A model generated the notes under the pieces. That model had not been told where the DNA came from and did not search any database. It saw only the letters and a program-made list of their open reading frames with translations. From contig JBGSRK010000013.1 of NCBI GenBank assembly GCA_041737595.1, positions 1 through 61,328 of the forward strand: DNA of 61,328 nucleotides, read 5' to 3'. The DNA is from Patescibacteria group bacterium. Its GTDB lineage: Bacteria; Patescibacteriota; CPR2; UBA1875. The translations under genes were made by a program, and so were the position numbers. Shown one piece after another: positions 4,471 to 61,328 of the stretch; position 1 is the first letter of the stretch; each line of letters starts with the position of its first letter.

Positions 4471-4498
4471 CACTACACTACTACGTAGTAGTGTAGTG
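4471..4498. repeat. Perfect 28-bp palindrome CACTACACTACTACGTAGTAGTGTAGTG
   Basis: Checked base by base. It sits in the AT-rich spacer between the thyX-like terminator and the ncRNA promoter. Confidence 0.9.
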
Positions 4499-4593: not shown

Positions 4594-5958
4594 TTACACG
4601 CGACGACGAGGGAAGTAGTTTTCCCCTCGATCTTGTGTTGTCATGTCTCTTCCGCAAGGATCTCCTTCGCCACAAACCTTGCAACCGTAGCAAGGAGGAA
4701 CCATTGCTCTCGGCAACATGTGTCCAGGATACAGCAGCTCGATCTGTGGTGCGATCTGGATGTCCTTGTTGAAGTGCTCTTGCTGAGCCTTCATACATGA
4801 ACGCTTCGAAAGATCGTGGATCGCTGAGGCGAAGTCTGAGCTCTTGACGTAGGTGACCATCGCACCATAAGGCGCGAGGTTTACGTGCAGTGAGGGGTCA
4901 AGAGAATCACGAAGGCCCATCCAATTTCTCTGGACCTGCACAATCCCTTTCTCCATCCCGATTGCCTGAGCAATCGGTGGCACATAGATTTCACCTGTGA
5001 ACTTCGCCTCACTCCTCTTGACGCTTCGATGGCGTTGATCTTGTCCCATCGTCATCACCGACATTGTCTCACACGTTCGGAGGTTCAATGTTCGGAGATC
5101 GAGGTATTCGGGCTTCACGGGTAGGAAGTCGATCGGATGGATATCCTCCCTTGGAGGGGGATCGCCGTAATACGGATCGACATCGAGTACCACAGATATT
5201 GGATCATGAACAGGTTTGCACGAAGTCCCGATGAACTCCGGTTCCTTGTTCAGTTCACCGATATCTCCAAACATGTACCCGATCTTGGGGTCCTCAGCCA
5301 GAACAAGTTCCACCATCTTCTGAAGGACCAGACGCATGCCTGGCTTCCAAGCCGCTCTGTACTGAGTGACCAGAGTGACGAGATCGACGGTGTAATAGAA
5401 CGCAGTTGGGAAGATCACCGGGATCGCAACCCGAAGCTGCTCTTGGGCTAGCTTCTTGGCATTATTCTCGATGAACTTCTCGGACGCTCGAGGTCGCTCT
5501 TCACGAATGAGTTGAGCCGCTTCTTGCGTTGCGATGGGCATGTTCTCGTGGAAGAGCACCATGCCTTCTTCAACGAAATCAAGAACCATCTTGCGATCGG
5601 CCGCAGATGACTCCGGATAGACGGTATCAAGAAGATCACTGATCCGGCTTATCCCACTCGCATTGAACATGTCAGAGGTGTACCTACCACTTCGCTGATC
5701 TGTGTTGTACCAGGGCGTAGTGTAGTGGAACCCGAAAGTAACATCTCCGACAGAACATCCCTCAACACTGAACGTGTAGTTCCCATGCTCAAGTGTCGTG
5801 TGGTGTCCAGAGCCAAAGAGTTGACCGCGCACAGTAGGACGTTTCTTCATCCCACGACCCGGCAACTCCGCTTCGTAGCAAGTACGAGCTGCATGTTGAG
5901 CCATGGATTCGGCTGTAAGACGTGGCGAGTTGATCAAAGTTACCCTCATAGCTTTCAC
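4594..5958 (-). CDS. ThyX-family (flavin-dependent thymidylate synthase-like) protein; atypical 454-aa tandem-domain form with a Cys-rich tail
   Basis: N-half: SGHHTTLEH ... NTDQRSGRY ... RVAIPVIFPTAFYYTV. C-half: GQDQRHRSVKRSE ... RSCMKAQQEH. These resemble the ThyX motifs (GHxSxxEH, RHRxxS...S.RY, R....AQxE) split over two repeats. The C-terminus is CYGCKVCGEGDPC. GC-rich. The ORF overlaps the tmk stop by 4 nt. Confidence 0.6.
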   Translation of the reverse strand: MKAMRVTLINSPRLTAESMAQHAARTCYEAELPGRGMKKRPTVRGQLFGSGHHTTLEHGNYTFSVEGCSVGDVTFGFHYTTPWYNTDQRSGRYTSDMFNASGISRISDLLDTVYPESSAADRKMVLDFVEEGMVLFHENMPIATQEAAQLIREERPRASEKFIENNAKKLAQEQLRVAIPVIFPTAFYYTVDLVTLVTQYRAAWKPGMRLVLQKMVELVLAEDPKIGYMFGDIGELNKEPEFIGTSCKPVHDPISVVLDVDPYYGDPPPREDIHPIDFLPVKPEYLDLRTLNLRTCETMSVMTMGQDQRHRSVKRSEAKFTGEIYVPPIAQAIGMEKGIVQVQRNWMGLRDSLDPSLHVNLAPYGAMVTYVKSSDFASAIHDLSKRSCMKAQQEHFNKDIQIAPQIELLYPGHMLPRAMVPPCYGCKVCGEGDPCGRDMTTQDRGENYFPRRRV

Positions 5959-6581
5959 CTCCCTTCGAGGCGACGTGAGAAGTCATCCCAGATGAACTTC
6001 CCAATTGTGACTTCATCAGGCAAAGCATCAACGACAACGATCCGACCAGGATTCTCCTTCGCGATTGTATCGAAGCCGTTGGAAACACGATGATGGAACG
6101 CCATTTCCTCAAGATCGAAGGTCGTGTTCTCATCTTCGCGTCCGATTGCTCTCGGAACGCCGATCTCGGGGTCGATCTTGTTGTAGTAGGTGACGTCCGG
6201 AACCAAGCCCTGAATCGCGGCATTGTTGTACTGCTTCACATAGTAGATCGGTTGACCTCGACCATACCCCTGGTATGCAAGGGTTGAGTCGATATATCGA
6301 TCACACACTACATGAATCCCGGCTTCGAGCCACTTGTAGATCTGGTTGACGTGTAGTACTCGATCTGCTTCAAACAGGAATATCTCGGCCATAGAGCTGA
6401 GCTTCCTGGTCGGGTGCAGAAGTGCTTCCCTAATCGGGAGCGTCTCAGGAATCCCTCCAGGTTCCTTTGTCCAAACGTTTCGGATGTTCAGATTGTCGAG
6501 TTGGGCTTTGAGCCTCATCGACTGAGTGGTCTTACCTGATCCTTCGCCACCTTCAAAGGTGACAAATAGTCCTCTTTCCAT
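5955..6581 (-). CDS. tmk: Thymidylate kinase
   Basis: FVTFEGGEGSGKTTQ P-loop and DRYIDSTLAYQGYGRG. Start moved to ATG 6581 (GGAAGGAGGGG SD). GC-rich. Confidence 0.9.
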   Translation of the reverse strand: MERGLFVTFEGGEGSGKTTQSMRLKAQLDNLNIRNVWTKEPGGIPETLPIREALLHPTRKLSSMAEIFLFEADRVLHVNQIYKWLEAGIHVVCDRYIDSTLAYQGYGRGQPIYYVKQYNNAAIQGLVPDVTYYNKIDPEIGVPRAIGREDENTTFDLEEMAFHHRVSNGFDTIAKENPGRIVVVDALPDEVTIGKFIWDDFSRRLEGR

Positions 6582-6737
6582 TTCCCCTCCTTCCAATATG
6601 ATTTTCGGTGGTCAAAGTGCACAAAAACGACAGAAGATAACCTAAATCTTTCAGATTTGGTGCCCTCCTGTCGTTGTAATTGTCAATTACCAAGTTATAT
6701 TTATTTATAGTTATTGTAAATAGTTTTTTAATGAAGA

Positions 6738-6759
6738 GTGCCGCCCCGAAGGGCGGCAC
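6738..6759 (-). terminator. Stem-loop after the dcd-like gene
   Basis: GTGCCGCC-ccgaag-GGCGGCAC, 22 nt downstream of the stop, followed by only a weak U-run. Confidence 0.55.
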
Positions 6760-6780
6760 ATCAACGTCATACTTGGGAGG

Positions 6781-7920
6781 CTACTTGCAGATCTCGGGCA
6801 TTGCAAAATGCTTCGAGAGTCTGGGCCCAGCCTGATTGAGGTAGTTGTTTCCCGACTGACCGTAAAGCTTTGTGGGCCTTTCGATCATCGAATACAACTC
6901 CATTGCACAGACCGGATCGCCGTGACTTAGGATGATGTCCTCGTGAGGGATCACCTCAAGCACCGCCGGTCCTCCAGAAAGCCCATTGGTGTAACCCCAA
7001 CCTGGATCAAAGAATCCCGCAAAGTGTGAGCGGTATTCTCCAATCCCAACGTTGTAGGCGACCATTTCCGAACAGTAGCCCGGCGGTACAGAGAATGCCT
7101 CACGTGTCGAAAGGATATAGAAACCATCCTTGGAAAGAACGATGTCTTTTCCTTTCGACGCATAGATCGGTTCGAAGAACCCCAGGGGGTCAATTCCACG
7201 CTTGCGAAAATCGACTGCGTTGGTTGCAGCACCGCGGAAGCGAAATGCAGCAACCTCGCCGCAAAGATTCGCCGAAAGGACAATTGAAGTCTTGATTCTC
7301 TTCATATCATCCCATGGAATCTTGTTCCCCTCGAGATCAAACAGCAGACCAGTATCTTCGTGGGTAGTTTGGAGTTCGAGGAGAGAAACCTCGCACTCTT
7401 CCATCCGACCCTGATAGAAACGGATCTGGTTCAGAGTATCCCCGACCCTAACACGAACTGGGAAACTCTTCGCTACGACGACTACGTACATCGGGCCCTT
7501 GTAACCCATCTGTACATTGTCGAACTCATGAGCGCCATTAGTGAGCAATCGAACCTGAAGATTCAGACGGCCCGAAGAACTCTTGTTGTTGGCCCTGGCG
7601 CACATATAGTCGGGAAGGGAGATGTTCTCTGCAAGAGGTAGAAGATATGGAATACCCGTTTCAAGCAGAAAACCACTCTGAGAGATTGGGATGCGGAAGA
7701 ATCCCGCATCTTGTGATCTCTTTGTCGCATCTGCCAAAATATCTCGACCTCCAGGCGACATAATCGCCGGAAGACGGATTGCCTCTCCCTCACCTATCGA
7801 AAGATCGAGTGAAGCTGGTTGAATGTTCTTTCCGGGGATCTTCACACTTGACTTGATCATCCCAGAGCCGATCATGCTCCTTATGAGCTTGTCGGGGACA
7901 ACACCAGATGCCTTGGACAT
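6781..7920 (-). CDS. dcd: Long-form 2'-deoxycytidine 5'-triphosphate deaminase-like protein (about 370-aa DCD family)
   Basis: GVVPDKLIRSMI..G.I......NIQPASLDLSIG...ETGIPYLLPL.E...LP......ANNKSSSGRLNL..R......EFD.V..GY.GP.Y......SFPV.VR.GD.LNQIRF matches my recollection of the long DCD family. GC-rich; AAGGAGG SD. Confidence 0.8.
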   Translation of the reverse strand: MSKASGVVPDKLIRSMIGSGMIKSSVKIPGKNIQPASLDLSIGEGEAIRLPAIMSPGGRDILADATKRSQDAGFFRIPISQSGFLLETGIPYLLPLAENISLPDYMCARANNKSSSGRLNLQVRLLTNGAHEFDNVQMGYKGPMYVVVVAKSFPVRVRVGDTLNQIRFYQGRMEECEVSLLELQTTHEDTGLLFDLEGNKIPWDDMKRIKTSIVLSANLCGEVAAFRFRGAATNAVDFRKRGIDPLGFFEPIYASKGKDIVLSKDGFYILSTREAFSVPPGYCSEMVAYNVGIGEYRSHFAGFFDPGWGYTNGLSGGPAVLEVIPHEDIILSHGDPVCAMELYSMIERPTKLYGQSGNNYLNQAGPRLSKHFAMPEICK

Positions 7921-30299: not shown

Positions 30300-30330
30300 A
30301 AAGGTTAAGGGCAGCCAGTAGGCCGCCCTG
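30300..30330 (-). terminator. Terminator of the GC-rich orphan gene
   Basis: Minus RNA GGGCGGCC-uacu-GGCUGCCC followed by UUAACCUUUUU. Confidence 0.55.
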
Positions 30331-30360: not shown

Positions 30361-30972
30361 TCAGGCGTAATGCCCCTTCCTTGCAATCACTTCGTCTGAG
30401 AGACAATCAAGAGTCAGAGAAAGATACTTGTGACTTTCTGCGACTTTTTTCTTACTTTTCTCTGACCCCCACATCAAGTTTCGCAAATGGAAGAGAAGTC
30501 TTGCCGGAGGTGTACCAGTAAGTTCCACGAGAGTCTGGGCGCTCACCTGTCTTGTTGAGCACTCAGTGACATTTACAAGCATGACTTCACTTCTTGTTCC
30601 ACCTCGCGGGTGCTGATCATCTTTCCTGCACAGTGTCATCTCGAGAACACACCAATTTCCTGTGTCATCAAGATAACCCGCTACATGTTGTCTGGTTTCT
30701 CCGATTCTCATAGTCTCGATCATGAAGTTGGTCTGTACCTCCATGCCATTGAGCTTTGTCAGTTTGTTTTCTGAAAGCTCAGTAGGAGACCAAGAGAATT
30801 TGATGTCGCTGGGGAGAACCTTAAGTTTTCCCAAGCTTATCTCCCGTACGTTGCTCGCAACGAGCATTCGCGCTGCTTCTACGTGGGTAAATATCTCTTC
30901 TCGAGACATTGTACCCTTCTTGGCCCATGCGCGTTCTTGCTTCTTCTTGCGAATATCACTTATCCAACTCAT
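30361..30972 (-). CDS. GC-rich orphan protein (203 aa), no recognisable family
   Basis: Long ORF in a visibly GC-rich island. A GGAAGG SD lies 9 nt before ATG 30972 (the track start 30981 is too close to the SD). The unit has its own promoter and terminator. Confidence 0.6.
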   Translation of the reverse strand: MSWISDIRKKKQERAWAKKGTMSREEIFTHVEAARMLVASNVREISLGKLKVLPSDIKFSWSPTELSENKLTKLNGMEVQTNFMIETMRIGETRQHVAGYLDDTGNWCVLEMTLCRKDDQHPRGGTRSEVMLVNVTECSTRQVSAQTLVELTGTPPARLLFHLRNLMWGSEKSKKKVAESHKYLSLTLDCLSDEVIARKGHYA

Positions 30973-31037
30973 TGCTACCATCCTTCCAAGGTCCGTGGCA
31001 TTGGGGGCATACCCACCGCAGCCAACAATAGGTGGTT

Positions 31038-31066
31038 ATGTTATCATATTTTTTAAATTTAGTCAA
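31038..31066 (-). promoter_or_regulatory. Promoter of the 30361-30972 orphan
   Basis: Minus strand TTGACT (31066-31061), 17-nt spacer ending TGA, TAACAT (31043-31038). This is the same TGATAACAT -10 as the 37521 RNA promoter. Confidence 0.55.
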
Positions 31067-45513: not shown

Positions 45514-45594
45514 GTCATTCTGAGCGGAGCGAAGAATCTAATAATAGATCCTTCATATTCATTCAGGATGACAGCCCGATAGATTCAATATGAC
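45514..45594. repeat. REP units (GTCATTCTGAGCGGAGCGAAGAATCTA; GATCCTTCATATTCATTCAGGATGAC; AGATTCAATATGAC)
   Basis: Same family, at the left border of the GC-rich array. Confidence 0.75.
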
Positions 45595-45675
45595 AAATAT
45601 AAATGAAAATGGCGGACTAAAGTTCGGGTTTCCCCGTTCCTTAGCCCGCCGTGTCTAACAGATCGTGTTGTTGGT

Positions 45676-46422
45676 CTACTTGTCGCCGGCCACAGTCGTG
45701 TACTCCTTCGGCTTCTGCGGAAGCTTGTGCAAGCTCCAGCCTGCCTCCTTCAGCAGAACCTTGAAACTCTCGAGGTTACCATGGTAGATGGCATCCTTGA
45801 GAGCCACGATCCAAGGATAGAGCTTGTGCTGAGAGGCGATAACCATCACCTCTGCACCTTGAACCTTGAAGTAATCCTCAAGGGAGAAAGGATAGCCATC
45901 GCGGCAAACATCGGTAATGGCCTGAAGGGCCATTGCCTTGTCGGACCCCGCCATGACAACTTGGGCAGCGACGCCGTACTCGACCTCGAGAAGCCTCTCC
46001 AAGCCCATGTAGCCGTCCTCATCGTTGATCATCCCGAGAACTTTCGTAACGATCGCACTTCGAGATGTCAACTGAGAGAGAATGACTTGCTCGATGCCCC
46101 TCAAGCTGGCAACCTTCGATGTAGCCTCGAACAACTCTTCGATACTATCCGGAGGGGTGTCCACAAGCTTCTTGACCTCCTCGACCATCTCGACGAAACA
46201 GCCGCAAACATCTTCGCAGTCACTCTGTTCATGACTTGCGATGTACATCTCGAGCTCTTTGATCGTCTCTCGATTGAGCTCAAGTGAAACACCTGCCTCC
46301 TTCGCCAACTCGGCGAGGGTGACAACCGTTTCAAGGCGGTTGTTAGTCGTGTTCACTCTCTTCAAGAGTGATGAGGTAACTCCTGCTCTTGCCATTTCTC
46401 TCCAATCATCGTATTTGTACAC
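45676..46422 (-). CDS. GC-rich orphan protein, array module I (248 aa; start GTG 46422 or ATG 46395)
   Basis: Long ORF in a GC-rich block with no recognisable motif. A 3' hairpin lies at 45611-45650. Confidence 0.6.
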   Translation of the reverse strand: MYKYDDWREMARAGVTSSLLKRVNTTNNRLETVVTLAELAKEAGVSLELNRETIKELEMYIASHEQSDCEDVCGCFVEMVEEVKKLVDTPPDSIEELFEATSKVASLRGIEQVILSQLTSRSAIVTKVLGMINDEDGYMGLERLLEVEYGVAAQVVMAGSDKAMALQAITDVCRDGYPFSLEDYFKVQGAEVMVIASQHKLYPWIVALKDAIYHGNLESFKVLLKEAGWSLHKLPQKPKEYTTVAGDK

Positions 46423-46480
46423 TTCACACAGAAGTATTCTCCCCTCCCAGGTTTCTTCTGTGTTTTTTGATCTGTTTTTA

Positions 46481-46608
46481 CAAGTTGCACTGCAGTAACT
46501 AATCTGCAGATTTTATCTATTGTCATTCTGAACTTGATTCAGAATCTAGTATAAATATTATCTGAAGATTAGGTAAAGCTGGTGCCACTCTGTGAACAGA
46601 GCGACACC
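46481..46608 (-). repeat. Inter-module structured repeat, copy 1
   Basis: CAAGTTGCACTGCAGTAA-CTAATCTGCAGAT (46499-46511) ... REP unit ... ATCTGAAGATTAG (46560-46572), then a GC hairpin. Confidence 0.8.
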
Positions 46609-46633
46609 ATAGTGCGATTCAACAAGAACACCT

Positions 46634-46915
46634 TCAGTTAGCATCTTGCGAGTACACCGAGTTAAGCCTTGCAACGACTTCTTTGACTGAGCCGTCGACA
46701 CGTACCTTCAGTTCTGGACCCTTTGGAATGGGGATGCCCTTGAGAATGAGATAGCTACTCTCGTTTGGCATGTCGAGCCCATTGTAGTAAAAGGTTCCTG
46801 CATCAATCACTTGCCCCACTTCTTCGGGATCAACACTGTAATCCTCAGTTCTGCTGAAAATGTTGTCTTGCCCATCCTCTTCTACAACTACTCTCTCAAG
46901 CAGTACCTTCTTCAT
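46634..46915 (-). CDS. GC-rich orphan protein, module II second gene (93 aa)
   Basis: The start lies 8 nt after the stop of 46924-47307, with a GAGG SD in the gap. A 3' hairpin lies at 46581-46608. Confidence 0.6.
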   Translation of the reverse strand: MKKVLLERVVVEEDGQDNIFSRTEDYSVDPEEVGQVIDAGTFYYNGLDMPNESSYLILKGIPIPKGPELKVRVDGSVKEVVARLNSVYSQDAN

Positions 46916-46923
46916 GATATACC

Positions 46924-47307
46924 TCAGTTATCTTCGTTTATAGGGGATCTTGCCACTCGCATCAACACATAGTTCTCAACAGTTGCACTCGCAGCCTTAA
47001 GAGAAACTATGAATGGTTCTTCCGAACCACCCATAATATCATAAACCGCGAGTTTGTAGTAACGAGAGAAAAGCTCCTCGTACGATTCGTCCCATGCCGA
47101 AATCTCATCCATACCATCCTGACATTTCTGTTTCGCTCTCATTAAGAGAGTTTGCAGAAAATCTGTCTCAAAGATGATCTGTTTTACGAGTTCCCGACGA
47201 GATAGTTCGTAATCTATGATTAGCCCTCCAGTTATCACTATAAAAAGAGTGACTAATACGAGAAAGAAAATCCCCAGTATTACAAATGCCGATATTATGG
47301 CGTCCAT
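46924..47307 (-). CDS. GC-rich orphan membrane-anchored protein, module II first gene (127 aa)
   Basis: Start moved to ATG 47307 (GGGAG 8 nt upstream). N-terminal TM helix AIISAFVILGIFFLVLVTLFIVITGGLII. Confidence 0.6.
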   Translation of the reverse strand: MDAIISAFVILGIFFLVLVTLFIVITGGLIIDYELSRRELVKQIIFETDFLQTLLMRAKQKCQDGMDEISAWDESYEELFSRYYKLAVYDIMGGSEEPFIVSLKAASATVENYVLMRVARSPINEDN

Positions 47308-47350
47308 ACTAATCACTCCCGTCTGGGTATCGATGTATGTCGACTTATTC

Positions 47351-47491
47351 AAGTTGCACTGCAGTAATTAACCTGCAGATAGTTCATTTTGTTTATAGAT
47401 TCTGAATCAAGTTCAGAATGACAAAAGGATTTTATCTGAAGATTAGTGATTGTGGTGGGTGAGGTTCGGATTGCTCCGTTCCCCACCCACC
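47351..47491 (-). repeat. Inter-module structured repeat, copy 2
   Basis: AAGTTGCACTGCAGTAAT-TAACCTGCAGAT (47368-47380) ... inverted REP unit ... ATCTGAAGATTAG (47434-47446), then a GC hairpin nearly identical to that of copy 4. Confidence 0.8.
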
Positions 47492-47514
47492 GTACTCAAC
47501 TGATCGTCTTGTGG

Positions 47515-47883
47515 TTAGCCTGTATAAGGCATAACCTTAGTTGAGTTGTGATTCGGCGAGCGCATGAGCTCACCGTTCGACTCCCGGATCTTCCCCAAGA
47601 GAAATTTCTGATCCCTGACCCGCTTAAGGAGCGAGTCAGGGGGCAGTGAATCATCCTTCGCGGCGTCCACAAGTTCGTGGATAACCTCGAAGAAGACCCT
47701 TGGGGATTTCTTCTTCACCACGACGATCTCGTGGCGTCGTTCTATCTCATTGATCACGGGCCCAGAAAAGGCACCCGAATAACCTGCCTCCTCAAGCATG
47801 TGACAGGACGTGAAAATCAGTGTCCTTGTGTCCAAACGGTTGAACCCTAGAAGCCCAAGCTCGCGTGCACTTTCATCGTTCAT
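47515..47883 (-). CDS. GC-rich orphan protein, module III (122 aa)
   Basis: GGGAGGG SD 4 nt before ATG 47883. A 3' hairpin lies at 47452-47490. Confidence 0.6.
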   Translation of the reverse strand: MNDESARELGLLGFNRLDTRTLIFTSCHMLEEAGYSGAFSGPVINEIERRHEIVVVKKKSPRVFFEVIHELVDAAKDDSLPPDSLLKRVRDQKFLLGKIRESNGELMRSPNHNSTKVMPYTG

Positions 47884-47929
47884 AATGCCCTCCCTGAGTT
47901 GATCCCTTCCGGGACATTTTCTGAGTAAA

Positions 47930-48049
47930 GCTACTTGCAGCTTAGAATTAGCTCAAAGGCTATTAGTCTAATCTGCAAATCTTTGTACAATTTTATTGTT
48001 CAATTTGATTTGAAGATTAGGTGATGTGCGCGGAACGAGGTCCGCGCAC
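47930..48049 (-). repeat. Inter-module structured repeat, copy 3 (divergent, no REP core)
   Basis: CTAATCTGCAAAT (47968-47980) ... ATTTGAAGATTAG (48008-48020), then a GC hairpin. Confidence 0.7.
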
Positions 48050-48069
48050 GTTTTCACCCGAGAGATGGT

Positions 48070-48546
48070 TCAGTCGAACATGTGGCAAGCTGAGCACGAC
48101 TTAGGGTTTGGGTTCCTGCAGTCGGTGCAGTCTGCCGCATATCGCGGCTCTAGACCAGGGGCCATTGAGTAGGCCTCGTCGTAATCGTACTCGTCCGGAT
48201 AAGAATCTCCGAACATTACGTCGGGATCACGGCTCATCTGCTGCCAAACAAGGTCCATAATCTCGATACTTGCTCGCTCTTCGAGCTTGCGCTCTGCATA
48301 GCTAATCGCGCAGTTCCGGACCCTGTGAATGATCTCCGTCTGCAACTCCATGGAGGTGCAGTTGTAGTCATCAAGCGAGTCCCAATATGCACTATCTTCG
48401 CCGTCTCTTTCCAGAAGACTTTTATACGTCCTCATGGAACGATCATAGGCGCCTTTGTGAATTAGTTCTTTAACCTCTGGCATTGCCAGAAGATCAGCCT
48501 GAGTCATACCAGGCTCTACCATGATGCCACAAGGCAGACGCAGCAT
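48070..48546 (-). CDS. GC-rich orphan protein, module IV second gene (158 aa), C-terminal CxxC-x7-CxxC
   Basis: The ATG lies 1 nt after the stop of 48548-48730 (TGAaATG). It ends ...CTDCRNPNPKSCSACHMFD. A 3' hairpin lies at 48026-48049. Confidence 0.6.
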   Translation of the reverse strand: MLRLPCGIMVEPGMTQADLLAMPEVKELIHKGAYDRSMRTYKSLLERDGEDSAYWDSLDDYNCTSMELQTEIIHRVRNCAISYAERKLEERASIEIMDLVWQQMSRDPDVMFGDSYPDEYDYDEAYSMAPGLEPRYAADCTDCRNPNPKSCSACHMFD

Positions 48547-48547
48547 T

Positions 48548-48730
48548 TCAGTTCACCTTCCTGTCGAGGTAGATTCCCAGTAGAACTGCGCCCGTTAGAA
48601 CATCGTGCACCCTGTCTGACATCTGTATAAATATCAGAGCTACGATGATAGAGATGATGAATATGTTATAGACAGCTTCGACTGCGGCTGTTAAAGCCGC
48701 AGCCCTTCTTTCTGACATTCTTGAGCTCAT
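48548..48730 (-). CDS. GC-rich small membrane protein, module IV first gene (60 aa)
   Basis: Start moved to ATG 48730 (GGGGGG SD). Hydrophobic core VYNIFIISIIVALIFI. Confidence 0.5.
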   Translation of the reverse strand: MSSRMSERRAAALTAAVEAVYNIFIISIIVALIFIQMSDRVHDVLTGAVLLGIYLDRKVN

Positions 48731-48760
48731 TTTCCCCCCCATTTTTCTCGGGTGTATATT

Positions 48761-48921
48761 CAAGTTACACTGCAGTAACTAACCTGCAGATTTTATTCAT
48801 TGTCATTCTGAATTTGGCTGGCCCGAGGCGGACTCGCCCAGGGATTCAGAATCTATAAATATTATCTGAAGATTAGTGATTGTGGTGGGTGAGGTTTGGA
48901 TTGCTCCTTCCCCCACCCACC
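48761..48921 (-). repeat. Inter-module structured repeat, copy 4
   Basis: CAAGTTACACTGCAGTAA-CTAACCTGCAGAT (48779-48791) ... REP unit with a nested GC insertion ... ATCTGAAGATTAG (48864-48876), then a GC hairpin. Confidence 0.8.
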
Positions 48922-48948
48922 AAATTCGAAACCCAAAACGCATTGAGG

Positions 48949-49305
48949 TTACTTCTTGCGCCGAAACTCAGCTATCTTGGGCACACCATTTTTATCCGTG
49001 AAGACAAAAACGGTGTCACCGACCTCTATTCCAAGGTCAGTTGGGGGAAGAGCCACCGGCACTTCCTCAAATTCTGCCACGACGACTTCTTCGTAAATGG
49101 CAGTGACGGTACCTCCTTGGTGATAGCCAGACCAGAGTAGAGGCGTAAGGAAGAATGCGATAAGAGCTACAACCACAGCAGCTGTTATCAGAAACCCCTT
49201 TGCAGTTCCTTTCGAATACGTCATTAGTGCCATCAGCGCCACAATGATAAGGGCAATGATAGCCAAGACAAGCGGTCCCGTTAGCCAAGCTTCCCAGATA
49301 ATCAT
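48949..49305 (-). CDS. GC-rich orphan 2-TM protein, module V (118 aa)
   Basis: Start moved to ATG 49305 (AAGGGAGG SD). TM helices PLVLAIIALIIVALMALM and FLITAAVVVALIAFFLTPLL. A 3' hairpin lies at 48885-48920. Confidence 0.6.
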   Translation of the reverse strand: MIIWEAWLTGPLVLAIIALIIVALMALMTYSKGTAKGFLITAAVVVALIAFFLTPLLWSGYHQGGTVTAIYEEVVVAEFEEVPVALPPTDLGIEVGDTVFVFTDKNGVPKIAEFRRKK

Positions 49306-49383
49306 TATTCCTCCCTTGAACGTATTGGATATTGATCGCGTTGGTTTCGAATTCAAGTTACTTGTCCACAAAGTGAACTAAGT

Positions 49384-49412
49384 AATTTAACATATATTTA
49401 TATAAAAGTCAA
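49384..49412 (-). promoter_or_regulatory. Promoter upstream of the GC-rich array
   Basis: Minus strand TTGACT (49412-49407), 17-nt spacer ending TGT, TAAATT (49389-49384). It starts 3 nt after the map stop. Confidence 0.55.
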
Positions 49413-54041: not shown

Positions 54042-57000
54042 TTATTGGGTTTTTTTGCCTAAATTACTAAAGAATGAACCAACATTACGTGTCCAACTAA
54101 ATGTTTCTTCTAGACTTTTTAATATTAATTGAAGAATAGATTTTTCCTTGGAAGGTGTAACAAAAGTATAATCACTAGATTTTGTTTGATTTAATCTCTT
54201 ATCCTTTGAAACAATTCTAAAATGGTAGGTAGAAGCAGGGTTTAGGTCTTTAATAATAACTGTATGGGAGTTATTAAGCGATTCGTCTTCAATAGAAGCT
54301 TTGCCATATTTACCGCCGATTACACCCTCGTCATATTCAATTTTTGTTGTGGCTGGCTTATTTGTTGACCAAGAAATTATAGCTTGTGCATATTCATCAG
54401 ACTCACCTAGTGGGAGAATATCTATCTTAACTTTATCTATTTCTGGGCCTGTTTTATCTATTGGAGTCTCAAAAGAAAGATTTGACGACTTTGAAGAATT
54501 ACCTATCTTATCTTTTACTTCAACATAATATGCATATGTTGTGCCGTCTGTTAGATTTTTTAACTCTATTTGATGTATTTTAGAATATTGAGCAACCCCC
54601 GCCTTTTGATCAAATTTACCCTTTTCACCATAAGATACCGACGATTCGGTTTCAACATTTGTGGTAAATGTAACTACAGCCAGATATGGATCTTCTAAAT
54701 TAATTTTAAGATTTTGGATTTCAGGTTTAAGAACGGCAGTGAATTTATATTCTTTTGATGTATATTCTACATCATTAATATCAAGACCTCGAACTTTATA
54801 AAAATAAGTCGTCCCAGGAGTTAAATTTTTAAGCTCAACAACATGAACTGTATTATATTCATTACTACCTGCAGACTGCCCATATTCTTCAGATTTAGTT
54901 CCGAAATCGACCCAAGTAGTTGTTGCAATCAAAGTGTTCCAAACAATTTTTGCACTAGTTGCGGTAATATTTTCTTCTGCAATATTTGAGGCATCTGGCT
55001 GAATTACAAATTGAGAAGAATCAAATGGCTTTGTACTAAATGTCGCAAATTGGGTATTAGCAATATATTTATCTTCAGTCACAGAACGTATTTTATATGT
55101 ATAAGTAGTCGCCGGTTTAAGAGATTTTATTACAACCTCATGTGATCTGAGTAAAGCTGGATCGCCTGCTGTTTGTGAATCTTCGGACGACGATTCTCTT
55201 TTATATTCAACCGATGAATCAGCATTAATATTTGTTGTCCATTTAACTTTAGCAGTTGTTGTAGTTGGTTCTACTGTTATTCCTGAAATTGAGAAATCTT
55301 GGGTTTTAAATTCTTTCCAAGTGTTAGCTGCAGTTGTATCAATATTCCCTAGAGAATTTCTAGAAACAATTCTATATTCATAAGTTTTGCCCTTTTCTAA
55401 TCCAAGTAAATTTATTGTATGTGATGTAACTGGGGTAGTTCTATCTTTACCAGCGGCAATTACTATATTTGTATCTTTAATTCTATATTCAACAAGTGAA
55501 TCTGCCTGTTGATCTGTGGACCAGGTTATTGTAGCAGAAGAAACACCTACCCCAGTGTAATTAATATTAGAAACAATCGGTATAGCTGACCCAGGGTTAA
55601 TCGAAACCGGTGATTGATAAGTACTTCTATTGGAAATATTATTAATAACTGTTTCATCTGCATATTTATAATCTGTACCAGCATCATCAACGGAGATAAC
55701 ATAATATGAGTATTCTTTATCCTTTTCAGCAATAGAAATACCGTCAACATGATAGTTATCACCAATATCTGTTTTTTCTGTAATTTTCGTGGCACTTGCA
55801 ATACCTAAGGTTGATTCAAAGCGCCAAACTTCATATTTTGAAAAATCACTTTGACTGTTTCTTTGAGGATCTGATATCATCTGCCAAGTAACAATATTTC
55901 GGACCATTGAGTCGTTAGCATGGATATTTTTAACAGTTACCTCTTGAGGTTGATCTGGCGCGGTTATATCTGGGACAGTATCCCAACCGCTATTATGAGT
56001 TCCGAGGCCAATAGACGAAAGACCAGACTTAACTATCTGCTCATTTTCAGGTGTACCTGGGTCATTTTCAATCGAAACATTTAAACCATATGCAATAATT
56101 TTATAATAATAAGTTGTTGCATCGTCTTCAACTGTATCAGTATAACTTCTTTCAATATCCTGGATCTCTCCCGCAATAGAAAGATTATTTATTTCATGTA
56201 TTGGGGTAAGAGCTTCCCACTCGCCATCATTTTCATAGTTAATTGTAGAACGATATATTTTATAATCAGTGATCGAATTTTCAATTACTTTTATTTTTGA
56301 TCCTAAAAATGTTATGTTAATTTTATTACCAACGTTTGAGTCAGTATTTGGGTCCCCTTTTACAGCTTGAACAGTTACGTTTGAAGGGGAGGTTGGAACC
56401 TGAGAATTTTTTGTTCTAACGCTCTTATAAGTACTTAAAACACTAGTTAAATCTGCATTATCAGTTGATGAAACTCGATAATAAAAATATGTATCTTCGG
56501 TTAGACCATTATCAGAATAACTCACTCCAGTACCAGTATAGATTAATTGTTCTCCGGCTCCTTGATCTGACGTCGCACGATAAAGCTTATAATTTTTTAT
56601 TCCCGAACCGTTTCCCGTTGGTATTCTATCTATTGTTCTTGTATCTGTTGAAGCAGACCAGGTTATATTTGTTCCTTGAGTTTCGCCTGTATTATCTACC
56701 CCAATTGCAGAAGCAGAGAGGCCAGTTGGAGTTGATGGAGGTGTTTTATCTGTAGTTTTGGCTGTCCCTGAGTTATATGCCATATTAAGCGGATACCCAG
56801 GTTCTGAAGCAATAACATCAGTCTCATTTAGATTATCATCTACAGCTGTTACACGATAAAAATAATCAACATAATCATTAAGTCTAGTTGTTGCTTGAGA
56901 TTTTATTGAACCGATTGTTACATCAGTGAATGTAGCGTCATTATTTGTATCATTATCATAATAGGTAGTAATTGGATTTTCTGGTGCAACAACTTGGTTT

Positions 57001-60000
57001 TTTGGTGGGTTAATGTCTATATAACCAACTATTACATAATCACTTGCTTCAGATGAGTAGGTCCCTGTTTTACGATAGATTTTATAGCCTGTTACCCCAG
57101 AACCAGCATCTGTTGTGGCATTCCAAGTAAGTTTTATTTCGTAACCCTTATTTGCAATATTTGAACATTTTTGTGATGTACCATCACATGCAACTGCCGT
57201 AACACCACCAAAAGCAACAGGATCAACCCCATCTACAGTTAATCCCCTTGTAACTGAAACTGGCCAGACTCCCCAATCTGCTGGATGGGCCAAGTCTTTT
57301 GCACGAATTCGATAATAATATGAAACAGATTGTTCAATCGCGCTACCAGTCGTGAGCGTACAACCAGCCGTAGACACACCAGTTATGGTTTCAGTGAGTG
57401 AAGTGTTTATGGCACAATCGACTAACGCATATGTTTGAGAGTTGCTCCAAGTACCTGTTGGGGTTAAGACATCTTGTTCATATATAGTTTTTTTAACTCT
57501 TTCTATTTGATGGTTAGAAATGGCAGATCCGGCAGCATTGTAACTCCAAGAAAGATTAATATTATTTGTATCATTTTGAGATACTGAGAATGTTTGAGGA
57601 GTAGTCGGAACAGCTGTATCAAGGATTATTGTGTCTAAAATAGTATTAAAATTTGGGTTTACTGTTCTAACACAAATTATTTTTTTAGACATTGTTTTTG
57701 TTCCAGATCCGCTTCCACTTGGATATGGATAAGGTATATATCTTGCTGAACTTTCACTTGATTCTGTAGCAATCCAAATATCTTCTGTAAAATCTAAATC
57801 GAAGGTCACATTATGATTCAAAATATAACTTAACTCACTATAATATGGTAGTCTACCGCCAACAAGTTGACATGCATTTTGAGCTGGATATGCAGAAAAA
57901 TCGACACTTGAACTTTCAACTAATGAGTAATTAGTTGGGTATTTTGCATCTAAACCAACCTCACACTGAGGACTCGTGCAAGAAGTTACTGTCGATTTCC
58001 ATTGATAATTTGTTGGAAGATATTGATGATAGACTTGTTTATCATCTAGAACTGTACCAGAGGGCCCATCAATATAATCATCTGCAAATAAATCTGGTTC
58101 TCCCGCTACATTCCCAGCCTCATCTTTTACTCGTATATAAATTTCTTTAGCACCATCAGAACCTTCTAAATACCAAGCATCTGTAATAGTTTGAACATTG
58201 ATTTCATGAGGATTAATTGTTTCATAATACGTCCAATCGGTTGATTTGTTATTTGTGGTTCCACTGCCAGAATAAGTCCCCCAATTTGTCCCATCTTGTG
58301 AAAATTGAACTTTTAAATCTTTATTATTACCATTGTCATAATAAACACCTTTTGTTGTAACTAAACGATTTGCTTCGGTTATATATTCTGTACTTCCACC
58401 TGAAGATTCAACATAAAATCCAGAAAGGGTCGGAGTACTTAAATCTAAAATAATAGAGTCAGAGACATTCACCGAATCAAACTGAATATCATAAAAAGTT
58501 GGTGTATTATTACCATCACCTGTTAGAGTGGCTTTGTATTGAAGGTATTGATGATTATCAAGCTCACTTGGAGCGTCTTCGCCAGAGGTAAGAGTATAGT
58601 AGCCTGTCCAGGTACCGTCTGGTATAGCGGTATTGCCAGCTCTGGCCTTGATAGAAATGGCAGTATTTGCAGGAGTAGTGTCGACATTGAAAATGACTAC
58701 ACCAAAATCAGTTACCTCTTGGCCAGAATCAAAGACTTCTGAATTAAGTAATCCTAAATAATTAAGGGTGTTTGTGGGGATATCCCTAACACAACGAACA
58801 TAATAATTGGTAGTTTTGTCGCTTAATCCTAAGCCTCCATTAGAAAAAGTAACAAAAATGGCCTGGCTGTCACTAGTTTGAGTAGCACTCCAAAAAAAGC
58901 CTGTACCAAAATTATTTCCATAAGAAGCACTATCCACATAAAGATCATGCAACTCATTGTAATATGGGAGTCTTCCACCCAACACACTACATGCATTCCG
59001 AGCAGGATAATCAGAATAATCCACAGCATTAGAGGCATTTAGGGCCATCTTTGCCGTAAAAGCAGGATCAATGCCTAGAGAACACTGTGGCTCACTACAG
59101 TTTGTACTATACAACCCCCAACCATACCTCTCTGAGAGATTTTGAGAGTACACCTGCTTGCCCTCTAGATAAGACTCGGCCAAACCATCGTAAATCCATC
59201 CTGAATTATTTACTGGTGATAAAGTAACATTGCCGTTTTCGGCGCTTAGACCTTGCAAAGTATCCCCCGCAAAGTCATCATCACTGGTCTGTAACCATGT
59301 TCCGCTCACATTCCCAGCATTATCCCGATATTGAGCATAAACTGTTTTTTCACCTTCTCCAGAAGTTAGGTTCCAGGATTTTGAGGCAGCATATGCCTCC
59401 CACTCCTCTGTATCGAAAACCCCATCATTACTAAACCTCATCTGCCCAAGATTAGACCCACCTATATCAACCGCTGAAGATGTATCAAGGGTTACATTTT
59501 GAGAATTAGCATAGGCACCACCGTTAATAACTACATTACCAGTCGGAACAGACTGGTCAATAGTGATATCTGCTGACGTTTCTTCATTAGCACCATAAGC
59601 TGTCCAGCCAGAAACCCTGCCCTGATCATCTATGGCTCTTACTTGGAGGTGATATTCTGAGCCATTCGTAAGGCTTGTGATATCAACATAATTATTTCCA
59701 GCCTCAGCGGTGTATATATTATCAGAAGAATCGAAGGCGGTACCAATTTCTTCAATCTCTACTTCTGGGCGAATATTTTCAGGTGTGACACAACCCGTAC
59801 AAGTTAGATTATTAGCCGTAACTCTTAGAGTTGATTCGTTAGACCAAGCATCTGGCACTCCGCCGCTGACAGTAGTTCCAGACGAGTTTTTTAGACTTGT
59901 GGCGTCTGTTTTTGTAAGCACGATATTGGCGTTTGTAGGAGCCTCGAGGGTGTCATAGGTAATAGTGAAATCATTAAGAATTGGGGTACTAATTCCGTCA

Positions 60001-61328
60001 ATTGATTCTAATGTGAGTTCTACTTCCAGCCATTGTGACGGGGCTGAAGTGATTATACTGCCCGAGACTTCATAATAACCTGACCATTCAGCTGTAGTAA
60101 GTTCTAATTCTGTATTAGCACCTCGAGTTCGAAATTTTATATTAGTATTTACTGGTTCTGTGCCATTCCATGATATGGTCGACCAAGAAACAATAGAACC
60201 ACCATTAATTTTTAATCCACCTAAAACACCCTGGGTATAGTAATTATCTTGGCTTTTTATACCTATAAAATTAGATATACTTGATGTGTAACCTACTTTA
60301 AAAATATTTCCAGAATTATCTAACCCCATCATACAATCTCTTGAAGCTGATATATATTCTATACCTGTCCAATTTTGTGCAGGAGTATAATCCCACGCAT
60401 ATTGGGAAAGAGAAGGAGACACTAATAATTCTCCATTTTGAGTTAACGCAAATGTGTTATATCTTCCAACCGTGATTTGTTTTACGCCACTCCAACTTCC
60501 AACATCAATTCCCCCATAATATGGATTGCTTGGGTATTCTGCAACAACAGTACCATCATTTTTAAGACCAATTACGTGGCTATCACCAGCTTTGATAGAA
60601 ATAATATCGCTCCACAGGGTTGTAATTGAAAGATCTGAGCCATTATAATGAAGTTTACCTAACACATTGCCTGATTCATTTAAACCAACTGTTTTATCAC
60701 CCCCAGTTGATATAATTTTAACATTTGTCCACTGTGACAAATTTGATGCTGCAATACTATCCCCTCCTACATAAACGACAGTGCCTGTTTCGGTTATTGC
60801 AACTGTATGATCTAAATATGCAGAAACTGATTTAAGGTTAGGCCATGAACCAAAATTCAATTGACCATATAAATTACTACCACTACCAACTATTGTTCCA
60901 TCTGATTTTAACCCCACAATATGATTTCTACCTGCACTTACTTCAATTAGATTATTCCAAGTAGTTGATAAACAACTTACTCCAGCACCACTACAAACAG
61001 CCGTACCATCAGATTTAATAGCAACTGCGACATTATCAGACCCAATAAATGTATTATGATTACTTTCAGAATCAATAATTACTCTATCACTTAAATCTGT
61101 CACTACATTATTAGATATTGTAGGAGAACCAGTACTAGTTTCGTTATTGCTAAAATCACCTTTTGTTGTCCAAGTAACTGAGTTAGCAGCCGATTTAACC
61201 TCACGCGGTTTCCAGAGATTCAAATATGGGAATAATTGTTGAGCTCCTTGAAAAATTACAAATGAAAGTATAAAAGAAACAAAAACGGTTTTATGAATAG
61301 GAGAAGTATATTTTTTATCTGAATATTT
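54042..61328 (-). CDS. Giant surface protein (over 2,428 aa; the 5' end lies just beyond the right edge): anchor, RCC1-like propeller repeats, two Cys-framed lectin-like (DUF1566-like) modules, many FN3/Ig-like repeats
   Basis: The track ORF 54042-61223 is open upstream to 61328 in my reading (..KYSDKKYTSPIHKTVFVSFILSFVIFQGAQQLFPY-LNLWKP..). Repeats of the type H.VGLK.DGT.V..G.N..GQ near the N-terminus. Modules YPARNACSVLGGRLPYYNEL...FFWSAT...YYVRCVRD and YPAQNACQLVGGRLPYYSEL...ICVRT. About six C-terminal repeats of the type A.I.W.T....DS.VEY......Y.Y.V.S. Confidence 0.85.
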   Translation of the reverse strand, partial: KYSDKKYTSPIHKTVFVSFILSFVIFQGAQQLFPYLNLWKPREVKSAANSVTWTTKGDFSNNETSTGSPTISNNVVTDLSDRVIIDSESNHNTFIGSDNVAVAIKSDGTAVCSGAGVSCLSTTWNNLIEVSAGRNHIVGLKSDGTIVGSGSNLYGQLNFGSWPNLKSVSAYLDHTVAITETGTVVYVGGDSIAASNLSQWTNVKIISTGGDKTVGLNESGNVLGKLHYNGSDLSITTLWSDIISIKAGDSHVIGLKNDGTVVAEYPSNPYYGGIDVGSWSGVKQITVGRYNTFALTQNGELLVSPSLSQYAWDYTPAQNWTGIEYISASRDCMMGLDNSGNIFKVGYTSSISNFIGIKSQDNYYTQGVLGGLKINGGSIVSWSTISWNGTEPVNTNIKFRTRGANTELELTTAEWSGYYEVSGSIITSAPSQWLEVELTLESIDGISTPILNDFTITYDTLEAPTNANIVLTKTDATSLKNSSGTTVSGGVPDAWSNESTLRVTANNLTCTGCVTPENIRPEVEIEEIGTAFDSSDNIYTAEAGNNYVDITSLTNGSEYHLQVRAIDDQGRVSGWTAYGANEETSADITIDQSVPTGNVVINGGAYANSQNVTLDTSSAVDIGGSNLGQMRFSNDGVFDTEEWEAYAASKSWNLTSGEGEKTVYAQYRDNAGNVSGTWLQTSDDDFAGDTLQGLSAENGNVTLSPVNNSGWIYDGLAESYLEGKQVYSQNLSERYGWGLYSTNCSEPQCSLGIDPAFTAKMALNASNAVDYSDYPARNACSVLGGRLPYYNELHDLYVDSASYGNNFGTGFFWSATQTSDSQAIFVTFSNGGLGLSDKTTNYYVRCVRDIPTNTLNYLGLLNSEVFDSGQEVTDFGVVIFNVDTTPANTAISIKARAGNTAIPDGTWTGYYTLTSGEDAPSELDNHQYLQYKATLTGDGNNTPTFYDIQFDSVNVSDSIILDLSTPTLSGFYVESSGGSTEYITEANRLVTTKGVYYDNGNNKDLKVQFSQDGTNWGTYSGSGTTNNKSTDWTYYETINPHEINVQTITDAWYLEGSDGAKEIYIRVKDEAGNVAGEPDLFADDYIDGPSGTVLDDKQVYHQYLPTNYQWKSTVTSCTSPQCEVGLDAKYPTNYSLVESSSVDFSAYPAQNACQLVGGRLPYYSELSYILNHNVTFDLDFTEDIWIATESSESSARYIPYPYPSGSGSGTKTMSKKIICVRTVNPNFNTILDTIILDTAVPTTPQTFSVSQNDTNNINLSWSYNAAGSAISNHQIERVKKTIYEQDVLTPTGTWSNSQTYALVDCAINTSLTETITGVSTAGCTLTTGSAIEQSVSYYYRIRAKDLAHPADWGVWPVSVTRGLTVDGVDPVAFGGVTAVACDGTSQKCSNIANKGYEIKLTWNATTDAGSGVTGYKIYRKTGTYSSEASDYVIVGYIDINPPKNQVVAPENPITTYYDNDTNNDATFTDVTIGSIKSQATTRLNDYVDYFYRVTAVDDNLNETDVIASEPGYPLNMAYNSGTAKTTDKTPPSTPTGLSASAIGVDNTGETQGTNITWSASTDTRTIDRIPTGNGSGIKNYKLYRATSDQGAGEQLIYTGTGVSYSDNGLTEDTYFYYRVSSTDNADLTSVLSTYKSVRTKNSQVPTSPSNVTVQAVKGDPNTDSNVGNKINITFLGSKIKVIENSITDYKIYRSTINYENDGEWEALTPIHEINNLSIAGEIQDIERSYTDTVEDDATTYYYKIIAYGLNVSIENDPGTPENEQIVKSGLSSIGLGTHNSGWDTVPDITAPDQPQEVTVKNIHANDSMVRNIVTWQMISDPQRNSQSDFSKYEVWRFESTLGIASATKITEKTDIGDNYHVDGISIAEKDKEYSYYVISVDDAGTDYKYADETVINNISNRSTYQSPVSINPGSAIPIVSNINYTGVGVSSATITWSTDQQADSLVEYRIKDTNIVIAAGKDRTTPVTSHTINLLGLEKGKTYEYRIVSRNSLGNIDTTAANTWKEFKTQDFSISGITVEPTTTTAKVKWTTNINADSSVEYKRESSSEDSQTAGDPALLRSHEVVIKSLKPATTYTYKIRSVTEDKYIANTQFATFSTKPFDSSQFVIQPDASNIAEENITATSAKIVWNTLIATTTWVDFGTKSEEYGQSAGSNEYNTVHVVELKNLTPGTTYFYKVRGLDINDVEYTSKEYKFTAVLKPEIQNLKINLEDPYLAVVTFTTNVETESSVSYGEKGKFDQKAGVAQYSKIHQIELKNLTDGTTYAYYVEVKDKIGNSSKSSNLSFETPIDKTGPEIDKVKIDILPLGESDEYAQAIISWSTNKPATTKIEYDEGVIGGKYGKASIEDESLNNSHTVIIKDLNPASTYHFRIVSKDKRLNQTKSSDYTFVTPSKEKSILQLILKSLEETFSWTRNVGSFFSNLGKKTQ

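Follow-up and report, generated by a model that had tools for sequence, protein, structure and literature searches.

A candidate intercistronic RNA stem-loop between stacked orphan genes at a Patescibacteria map-ftsA locus

Short palindromes between bacterial and phage genes are of several described kinds. Repetitive extragenic palindromic (REP) units and bacterial interspersed mosaic elements (BIMEs) lie in operon spacers and stabilize the upstream mRNA. The ERIC elements (intergenic repeat units, IRU) of enterobacteria are co-transcribed intergenic inverted repeats that are sensitive to RNase III. The RNase III sites between the early genes of phage T7 are intercistronic hairpins with an internal mismatch or loop, at which the RNA is cut into stable units that retain protective hairpins at the new ends. 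The palindrome-associated transposable elements (PATEs) of the IS200/IS605 type carry strand-specific hairpins with a conserved mismatch, insert on the 3' side of a fixed tetranucleotide without duplication, and excise precisely. Correia elements are co-transcribed and form long hairpins that RNase III can bind or cleave, and in this way they can alter the expression of flanking genes (PMC2649163). Lastly, attC sites are defined by the pairing of AAC (in RYYYAAC) with GTT (in GTTRRRY) at the hairpin base, the one triplet pair kept in all attC sites (PMC5027507). Here, we compare with these systems an element found four times in a 61,328-nucleotide contig of a Patescibacteria group bacterium (assembly GCA_041737595.1, contig JBGSRK010000013.1, positions 1 to 61,328; the window), in an array of orphan genes between map and ftsA. 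By its sequence, the element appears to belong among the known kinds of intergenic palindromic elements as a new variant.

The original prediction described four copies, each with 13-nt inverted arms containing one mismatch, a variable core, and an adjacent GC hairpin, and all four proved real, at the coordinates given. In what follows, sense is the window minus strand, on which all genes of the region are encoded; L and R are the left and right arms in sense, and L' is the downstream partner CTGCAR. The parts of the copies are as follows.

46481-46608, minus: copy 1 (arms, REP core, GC hairpin)
46481-46498, minus: copy 1, leader-like segment
46499-46511, minus: copy 1, sense right arm
46512-46559, minus: copy 1, core (host REP)
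46560-46572, minus: copy 1, sense left arm
46581-46608, minus: copy 1, GC hairpin, with two G.U pairs in sense
47350-47491, minus: copy 2 (arms, inverted REP core, GC hairpin)
47350-47367, minus: copy 2, leader-like segment
47368-47380, minus: copy 2, sense right arm
47381-47433, minus: copy 2, core (host REP, inverted relative to copies 1 and 4)
47434-47446, minus: copy 2, sense left arm
47454-47491, minus: copy 2, GC hairpin
47930-48049, minus: copy 3, A-type (arms, core without REP, GC hairpin)
47935-47940, minus: copy 3, downstream partner CTGCAA (TTGCAG on the plus strand)
47941-47967, minus: copy 3, 27-nt insert, closed by an 8-bp alternative helix
47968-47980, minus: copy 3, sense right arm
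47981-48007, minus: copy 3, core (small hairpin, no REP)
48008-48020, minus: copy 3, sense left arm
48026-48049, minus: copy 3, GC hairpin
48761-48921, minus: copy 4 (arms, REP core with insert, GC hairpin)
48761-48778, minus: copy 4, leader-like segment (downstream partner CTGCAG, then TGTAACTTG)
48779-48791, minus: copy 4, sense right arm
48792-48863, minus: copy 4, core (host REP with a GC-rich insert in the REP loop)
48864-48876, minus: copy 4, sense left arm
48884-48921, minus: copy 4, GC hairpin

Within the window, the 13-mers CTAAYCTGCARAT and ATYTGAAGATTAG are confined to these four copies, as are the pattern ATCTGAAGATTAG and its partner. Three exact matches to the right-arm pattern are present, where ∼0.002 would be expected for an exact 13-mer. 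Pairing between the arms covers 12 of 13 positions, and the single invariant mismatch is G.A on the plus strand and U.C in the mRNA sense; on the plus strand, the left arm of copy 2 begins TTAAC instead of CTAAC. When three copies from related genomes (see below) are included, all seven have an arm helix of 7 bp, a 1x1 mismatch, and 5 bp that is free of bulged bases. The cores (18, 27, 40, 42, 48, 53, and 72 nt) are unrelated in sequence, and each extends the arm helix. The flanking TTAG is invariant apart from TTAA in one copy.

As originally proposed, copies 1, 2, and 4 have as their core a host REP unit (GTCATYCTGA-loop-TCAGRATC) in either orientation, with copies 1 and 4 alike and the whole core of copy 2 inverted; copy 3 has a different small hairpin. 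The host unit occupies seven further intergenic sites (10 in all in the window):

2200, host REP site
2903/2954, host REP sites
3660, host REP site
39153, host REP site
45514/45563, host REP sites

Dispersal of the REP/BIME type is thus seen in the window for the core unit (10 sites) and not for the 13-nt arms. Members of the host family are frequently arranged in inverted pairs, and their loops are of at least two types, GCGGAGCG and ACTTGAT.

On the plus strand, each copy is followed by a GC hairpin. Those of copies 2 and 4 follow different open reading frames (ORFs), yet their identity is 94% over 63 nt; in total, copies 2 and 4 have ∼140 nt in common, including this hairpin, and copies 1 and 4 have the core in common. 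Read 5' to 3' in RNA, a junction comprises the stop codon of the upstream module, a GC hairpin without a U-tail, the left arm CUAAUCUUCARAU, a variable apical hairpin (18 to 72 nt) that tolerates host REP insertions, the right arm AUYUGCAGRUUAG, a loop of 8 to 9 nt, CUGCAR, the leader-like AACUUGAAU, and the ribosome-binding site of the next module.

For analysis of pairing, the seven copies were aligned with cores cut to six nt and the 27-nt insert of copy 3 removed. In one helix (H1), L pairs with R, and 98.8% of 84 cells are paired, compared with 21 to 44% when the partner is slid by one to three columns. In the other (H2), nt 3 to 8 of R pair with L', and 97.6% of 42 cells are paired, compared with 12 to 53% when slid. 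The three further copies from other genomes keep both helices. The alternative hairpin proposed for CTGCAG-N8-CTGCAG was recovered by folding, and H2 or an equivalent downstream pairing formed in 7/7 copies when L was omitted. One H1 pair shows a double change, being G-C in window copies 1, 2, and 4 and A-U in the other four copies; in copy 3, this is the exchange of CAGAT/ATCTG for CAAAT/ATTTG already noted in the original prediction. The position involved, nt 3 of the right arm (C/U), covaries with its partners in both H1 (G/A) and H2 (G/A). For both helices, the observed covariation was reached by 13 to 14 of 500 shuffles. Covariation support is thin because it is based on one two-state column.

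The remaining variation separates the two strands. Two further H1 pairs and one H2 pair vary by wobble, and single-sided changes inside the helices are all G.U in sense and A.C in antisense, with one exception (the terminal H1 pair, which is broken in copy 2). Sense-only wobbles include the right-arm A/G at pair 5:28, a left-arm C-to-U change in the relative L071, and the change of CUGCAA to CUGUAA in L071 and L061. The C/T difference of copies 2 and 4 likewise gives G.U on the minus (mRNA-sense) strand only, as previously claimed. In L071 (element at 1789-1851), both partners of G5 in R are changed from C to T, at 1797 and 1844. With the left arm CTTTAAAT and the downstream CTGTAAG, a G.U pair is present in both alternative helices, so the same G is weakened twice. 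With RNA parameters, the arm helix is 4 to 5 kcal/mol more stable in sense for 5/7 copies and equal in two, and the adjacent GC hairpins are 3 to 9 kcal/mol more stable in sense at 4/7 junctions and approximately equal at three. Only arms and GC hairpins served as a strand test; energies of whole hairpins are not informative here, since each core was inserted independently and may lie in either orientation (e.g., the L062 core folds better in antisense).

The four copies separate five GC-rich orphan modules, all promoterless and all encoded on the minus strand. Housekeeping genes occur throughout the window, which represents an AT-rich (∼33% GC) Patescibacteria chromosome, and relatives of its FtsA are labelled Patescibacteria. 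GC content rises to 44 to 49% in the array block (45.6 to 49.35 kb), compared with ∼33% in the flanks; map borders the array on one side, and ftsA, ftsZ, and adk are annotated in the flanks. The features of the array are as follows.

45611-49412, minus: GC-rich module array, bounded by the promoter after map and by the terminator that precedes the ftsA promoter
49384-49412, minus: promoter after map, sigma-70-type TTGACT-17-TAAATT with an upstream TG
49351-49381, minus: primary leader, sense TTAGTTCACTTTGTGGACAAGTAACTTGAAT, with a 5'-proximal stem-loop and then AACTTGAAT
48949-49305, minus: module A, orphan ORF
48548-48730 and 48070-48546, minus: module B, orphan ORFs
47515-47883, minus: module C, orphan ORF
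46924-47307 and 46634-46915, minus: module D, orphan ORFs
45676-46395, minus: module E, orphan ORF
45611-45650, minus: terminal GC hairpin, which lies after module E and precedes ATTTTCATTT in sense
45514-45572, no strand assigned: two host REP units, paired in inverted orientation, where the array ends downstream

The module ORFs had no matches in Pfam, PHROG, or NCBIfam, and a homology search with the 239-aa protein of module E returned only itself. In a promoter scan, the promoter after map was the sole good promoter upstream of the array. At the other end, the hairpin at 45611-45650 is likely the true terminator because it alone among the array hairpins has a U-rich tail; no arm element follows it. 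All window copies therefore lie in one transcription unit, with a single good promoter and a single U-tailed terminator. The internal GC hairpins were ruled out as intrinsic terminators, as they have no T-run in sense, and the same applies to the arm helix.

An 18-mer, CAAGTTRCACTGCAGTAA, had been assigned to all four copies. Copies 1, 2, and 4 indeed contain it (three exact matches in the window, compared with 0.07 expected by chance), while copy 3 has the diverged AAGCTACTTGCAG in its place, separated from the arm by the 27-nt insert. The 18-mer is made up of L', with which R pairs in the alternative helix, and then AACTTGAAT; it is a copy of the operon 5' leader and does not belong to the hairpin element proper. 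The earlier view of a functional element stands insofar as the element is structured, strand specific, of single-stranded nucleic acid, and tied to the GC-rich cassettes, with the 18-mer excluded from the hairpin. In window copies 1, 2, and 4, R is followed by TTAGTTACTGCAGTGYAACTTGAAT, a repeat of the primary leader, and leader and copy 4 have GTAACTTGAAT (11 nt) and TTAGTT in common. The primary leader begins about where the transcription start of the conserved promoter is expected, and all nine primary leaders folded (from the window operon and relatives) have a 5'-proximal stem-loop. Together, the leader homology of the segment after the arm and the stem-loop in 9/9 leaders suggest that each internal module starts with leader-like sequence, the stem-loop of which (H2) would borrow its 5' half from the right arm.

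With FtsA as an anchor, the map-ftsA interval was located in nine further genomes or populations, eight of which (L053, L055, L057, L062, L063, L071, L073, and L076) keep the promoter after map. The ninth, L064, does not; its site is empty, with a map-ftsA distance of 68 bp (1578-1647). The interval is a hot spot across the clade, with ORFs that are always behind the same promoter and always GC-richer than the host genome. The window 122-aa protein is 27 to 38% identical to proteins of L053 and L055, and the Cys-rich end of the window 158-aa protein is 43% identical to an L053 protein. In the following intervals, one to three GC-rich small ORFs form a compact operon without spacers and without the element.

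L053 8910-10001: element-free map-ftsA interval
L055 2009-2592: element-free map-ftsA interval
L057 9203-10001: element-free map-ftsA interval
L063 1772-2813: element-free map-ftsA interval
L076 800-1450: element-free map-ftsA interval

Three further copies were found at the same locus in three genomes of another lineage (L062, L071, and L061/L073), whose FtsA is 73% identical to that of the window. L061 was found by an arm-pattern scan of JGI metagenomes, while L062 and L071 were found by protein look-ups and were thus unselected for the element. The element lies between modules 1 and 2 in L062 and L071 and after the last module in L061/L073; in the window, L062, and L071, the last module is without an element and has a plain terminator instead. 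Cassette content differs among L062, L071, L073, and L076, close relatives whose FtsA proteins form one 90%-identity cluster. Between lineages, 24 to 26 of the 26 arm nucleotides are identical, whereas the homologous cassette proteins that they flank are only 37% identical. Junction 1 of L073 has the same GC hairpin and spacer as junction 1 of L071, with the element precisely absent (GACC/TTAG in L073, GACC[CTAATC...GCAGG]TTAG in L071). This hairpin and spacer, GGCGGGCC...GGCCCGCC CGCACGACC, follow unrelated ORFs (L073 1540-1590, L071 1750-1850). In L062, a host-like, AT-rich PhD/ParE toxin-antitoxin pair lies between the array and ftsA (2112-2623), together with a duplicated ftsA-type promoter.

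In 154 kb (the window plus the sequence of relatives), only the seven known copies were retrieved by a covariance model built on the arms, with none in the remaining 57 kb of the window. The both-arm pattern gave a single match in the JGI metagenomes, at the map-ftsA locus, with the rest of the contigs of that sample scanned as well. Searches of IMG/VR with the 18-mer, the G-type arm, the both-arm pattern, and the arm/leader junction gave only chance matches in coding sequence, and a window-specific 19-mer had no copies among GTDB representatives (two chance matches). For the carriers, these negative results apply to the sampled part of their genomes. Weak arm-like matches in the ftsA-ftsZ spacers of L061 and L062 proved on inspection to be AT-rich low-complexity sequence. 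The element is therefore rare, limited to a few lineages, and tied to the map-ftsA array, and the contention that it is not a scattered miniature inverted-repeat transposable element (MITE) is upheld by the presence of 7/7 copies in the same cassette array.

We consider it most likely that the element acts in the mRNA-sense strand, within a polycistronic transcript from the promoter after map. Our favored reading, to which we assign a probability of roughly 0.4, is that it is a cis-acting intercistronic RNA stem-loop that would punctuate the operon transcript and refold to a leader-like 5' hairpin. An RNA element fits best because the wobbles work in sense only, two mutually exclusive helices covary, position and orientation are fixed inside one transcription unit, and the leader is mimicked; every copy is placed after the stop-proximal hairpin and before the next ribosome-binding site, in coding orientation. 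In the mechanism that we propose, H1, a long imperfect helix of L, R, and the core, would form first and would be the recognition or cleavage site of an endoribonuclease, either RNase III-like or sequence specific. Cleavage would separate the modules and leave the upstream piece with its GC hairpin, which would protect the 3' end. Once freed, the right arm could pair anew with CUGCAR, so that the downstream piece would gain, in H2, a 5'-terminal stem-loop like that with which the primary transcript begins. What we infer here is that the elements are transcribed, that the RNA is cleaved and refolds, and that stability or expression may be affected.

By analogy, the closest functional counterparts of the element are hairpins between cistrons that serve processing or stability, among them REP elements and the T7 RNase III sites. 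The T7 sites are without the arm sequence conservation or the alternative 3' helix seen here, where cleavage is a proposal. In copies 1, 2, and 4, the apex consists of true host REP units, but the arms are not host REP and are not dispersed, and the apex differs in other genomes. No Rfam 15 family matched at its gathering threshold; at E ≤ 1, the only match was a spurious one to mir-766 (28 bits, compared with a gathering score of 110).

Several points weigh against an RNA element. Read-through of the internal GC hairpins is assumed. The covariation is one two-state column split largely by lineage, and the G-type is confined to three recent window paralogues, which may reflect one evolutionary event. 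The arms are more constrained in sequence than a plain hairpin would require, which implies that a partner recognizes their sequence; a DNA enzyme could fill this role equally well. The precise absence of the element at L073 junction 1, leaving TTAG, looks like insertion or excision, and the mosaic junctions, with the same GC hairpin after unrelated ORFs, appear to point to recombination at the DNA level. Because the arrays without the element (L053, L055, L057, L063, and L076) use the same promoter, the element is apparently not required for the operon. Fast cassette turnover also argues for a role in DNA. Finally, by GC skew the mRNA-sense strand is the lagging-strand template, and the strand asymmetry is therefore compatible with folded single-stranded DNA.

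An unlikely alternative is an attC-like site, i.e., a folded hairpin used by a recombinase encoded elsewhere to stack promoterless modules behind the resident promoter. Crossover would occur at or next to the invariant TTAG, and the locus would be an integron-like platform without a linked integrase. Much of the organization agrees with this account. One promoter is followed by promoterless modules that end in imperfect hairpins with a conserved base and a variable terminal structure (18 to 72 nt). Sedentary chromosomal integrons, with their homogeneous, species-specific arrays of attC sites (59-base elements), likewise place promoterless cassettes behind one resident promoter. Cassette content varies within the 90%-identity FtsA cluster, as it is hypervariable between close relatives in integrons, and the L064 site is empty. 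The outer pairs (CTAA...TTAG) recall an R box, with the outer 5 bp CTAAT/GTTAG resembling CTAAC/GTTAG, and GTTAGAT of L071 fits GTTRRRY exactly. The modules and the primary leader all start at TTAG, as does the sequence at the element-free junction of L073, and the mosaic junctions imply internal crossovers. Folding is strand biased in both systems, and the better-folding strand here is the lagging-strand template.

In contrast, the hairpin itself departs from the attC definition. The universal AAC/GTT pair is not formed: the right arm has GTT in 5/7 copies and ATT in window copies 1 and 3, and its partner triplet is always AAT, which results in G.U or A-U. None of the seven copies has extrahelical bases, and a 1x1 mismatch replaces the unpaired central spacer. 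Whereas attC sites follow every cassette, only L061/L073 has the element after its last module. The favored strand is the coding (top) strand, while attC sites fold from the bottom strand. The covarying alternative helix with downstream sequence is a feature of this element and not of attC, and it would have no role in recombination of this kind. Arrays without the element vary equally. A promoter is present, but no intI or attI was recognized, and no recombinase or transposase domain, integrases included, was found in 53 scanned ORFs of the window's 62 ORFs of at least 110 aa (4 of the 53 gave no domain match at all) or among the genes called in L062, L071, and L073. The nine unscanned ORFs are mostly alternative-frame ORFs overlapping scanned genes, with a 2393-aa ORF as the main exception. 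Judged by these comparisons of sequence and structure, the element should not be filed as an attC site. We hold it improbable that the map-ftsA locus is a non-canonical integron-like capture platform, in which a hairpin of the coding (lagging-template) strand, a TTAG crossover, and an unlinked tyrosine, HUH, or other recombinase would operate. A dif/Xer-like core site was also rejected; no similarity was seen by eye, the inverted half-sites agree at 5-7/8, and the spacer in copy 3 is 32 nt.

It is likewise possible, if unlikely, that the element is a small non-autonomous palindromic mobile element, either MITE-like or PATE-like, that inserts 5' of TTAG in leader-like sequence. RNA folding would then be a by-product and any effect on expression incidental, as with Correia, ERIC, and REP elements. 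The 13-nt arms (12/13 complementary) would be its terminal inverted repeats, and the otherwise homologous junctions of L071 and L073 differ by its precise presence or absence. The apex takes nested REP insertions in either orientation, and the distribution is patchy, with the element present in two lineages that are 73% identical in FtsA and absent from lineages between them. The fixed flank (CTAA on the antisense strand, i.e., the TTAG that is TTAA in one copy) and the precise presence or absence also fit a PATE. In the dispersed PATEs, however, separate subterminal hairpins at the left and right ends are recognized by TnpA, while here the ends pair with each other, and no tnpA was found in the scanned ORFs. 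Correia elements offer a precedent for co-transcribed repeats that are bound or cut by RNase III (PMC2649163).

Against mobility, no target-site duplication or microhomology is present at the ends. No direct repeat is common to the flanks of the seven copies, and the constant 3' TTAG belongs to the arm. All seven copies, from four genomes, lie in one array at one locus; no copies occur elsewhere in the 154 kb searched, and a single match was obtained from JGI metagenomes. No transposase is encoded nearby (among scanned ORFs), the orientation to genes is fixed, and the covariation and sense-only wobbles indicate selection on pairing after insertion. Like Correia (NEMIS) and ERIC elements, the element is short and intergenic, has terminal inverted repeats, and is likely co-transcribed. 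Those families, however, comprise tens to hundreds of dispersed copies in either orientation with TA target duplications, whereas here only 13-nt arms are present, without duplication, in a fixed orientation, and in one array.

Less can be said for portable homology, a doubtful explanation by which the junctions (GC hairpin, arms, and leader copy, ∼100 to 190 bp) would matter only as repeated DNA for RecA-dependent shuffling, duplication, or deletion of modules after uptake of DNA from relatives. The sequence that copies 2 and 4, and copies 1 and 4, have in common favors it, the mosaic pattern fits crossovers in junctions, and Logan assemblies from the same population break at these repeats. 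Between lineages, however, only 13 + 13 nt are conserved, which is too short for this purpose and yet is the best-conserved part, and the conserved mismatch, sense-specific wobbles, and alternative helix are left unexplained.

An internal promoter, or a promoter switch invertible between the arms, is highly improbable: copies 1 and 4 have a -10-like TAAAAT that abuts the right arm, and their cores are oriented opposite to that of copy 2, but no copy showed an acceptable -35 or extended -10 in the promoter scan, the other five copies do not keep the -10-like box, such hexamers are expected by chance in an AT-rich region, and cores of 18 to 72 bp are too short for site-specific inversion, so both versions were rejected. 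Diversity-generating retroelement, retron, and CRISPR-like systems were dropped, as the sequence alone revealed no reverse transcriptase, template/variable repeat pair, or regular spacing.

Several features outside the array were also recorded. Approximately 650 nt of non-coding sequence with ∼55% GC (compared with 33% for the genome) lie at 3680-4330, between a thyX-like gene and the L10 leader, and may be a large structured RNA; a sub-threshold Rfam tRNA-like signal falls at 4145-4213 on the minus strand (26.3 bits, gathering score of 29), where ARAGORN found nothing. A perfect 28-nt palindrome (CACTACACTACTAC followed by GTAGTAGTGTAGTG) occupies 4471-4498, in an AT-rich spacer downstream of the thyX-like gene. 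A second GC-rich island (∼50%) at 4594-7920 encodes a 454-aa ThyX-like protein, thymidylate kinase, and a two-domain dCTP deaminase; it lies beside a host-like dUTPase and is apparently a nucleotide-metabolism block of foreign composition. The GC-richer orphan gene at 30361-30981 (206 aa, no Pfam match) has its own promoter of the array type (TTGACT-17-TATGAT, ∼31035-31066) and its own terminator (∼30300-30330). On the minus strand, 54042-61223 is a single ORF of 2393 aa; at the equivalent place, relatives encode 1600- to 1800-aa proteins with Kelch/RCC1-type repeats.

Patescibacteria have tiny genomes and few known routes of gene gain. At the map-ftsA locus, gene content changes between genomes with FtsA more than 90% identical, the genes carried are all GC-rich orphans, and no conserved non-coding feature other than the element is tied to the array in its stacked form. 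What appears notable, as judged from sequence, is this exclusive tie to a hypervariable, stacked array of GC-rich orphans together with the covariation support for a bistable fold. If the element does punctuate RNA, it would be a compact bistable processing site with a sequence-specific partner. If it is instead a recombination site, it would represent cassette capture outside the integron paradigm, and with a platform served by an unlinked recombinase, the capture of cassettes at hairpin sites would have been invented a second time, independently, in an episymbiotic lineage whose genomes are minimal. In either case, the two 13-mers and their pairing rules provide a short, specific probe for such arrays in metagenomes.

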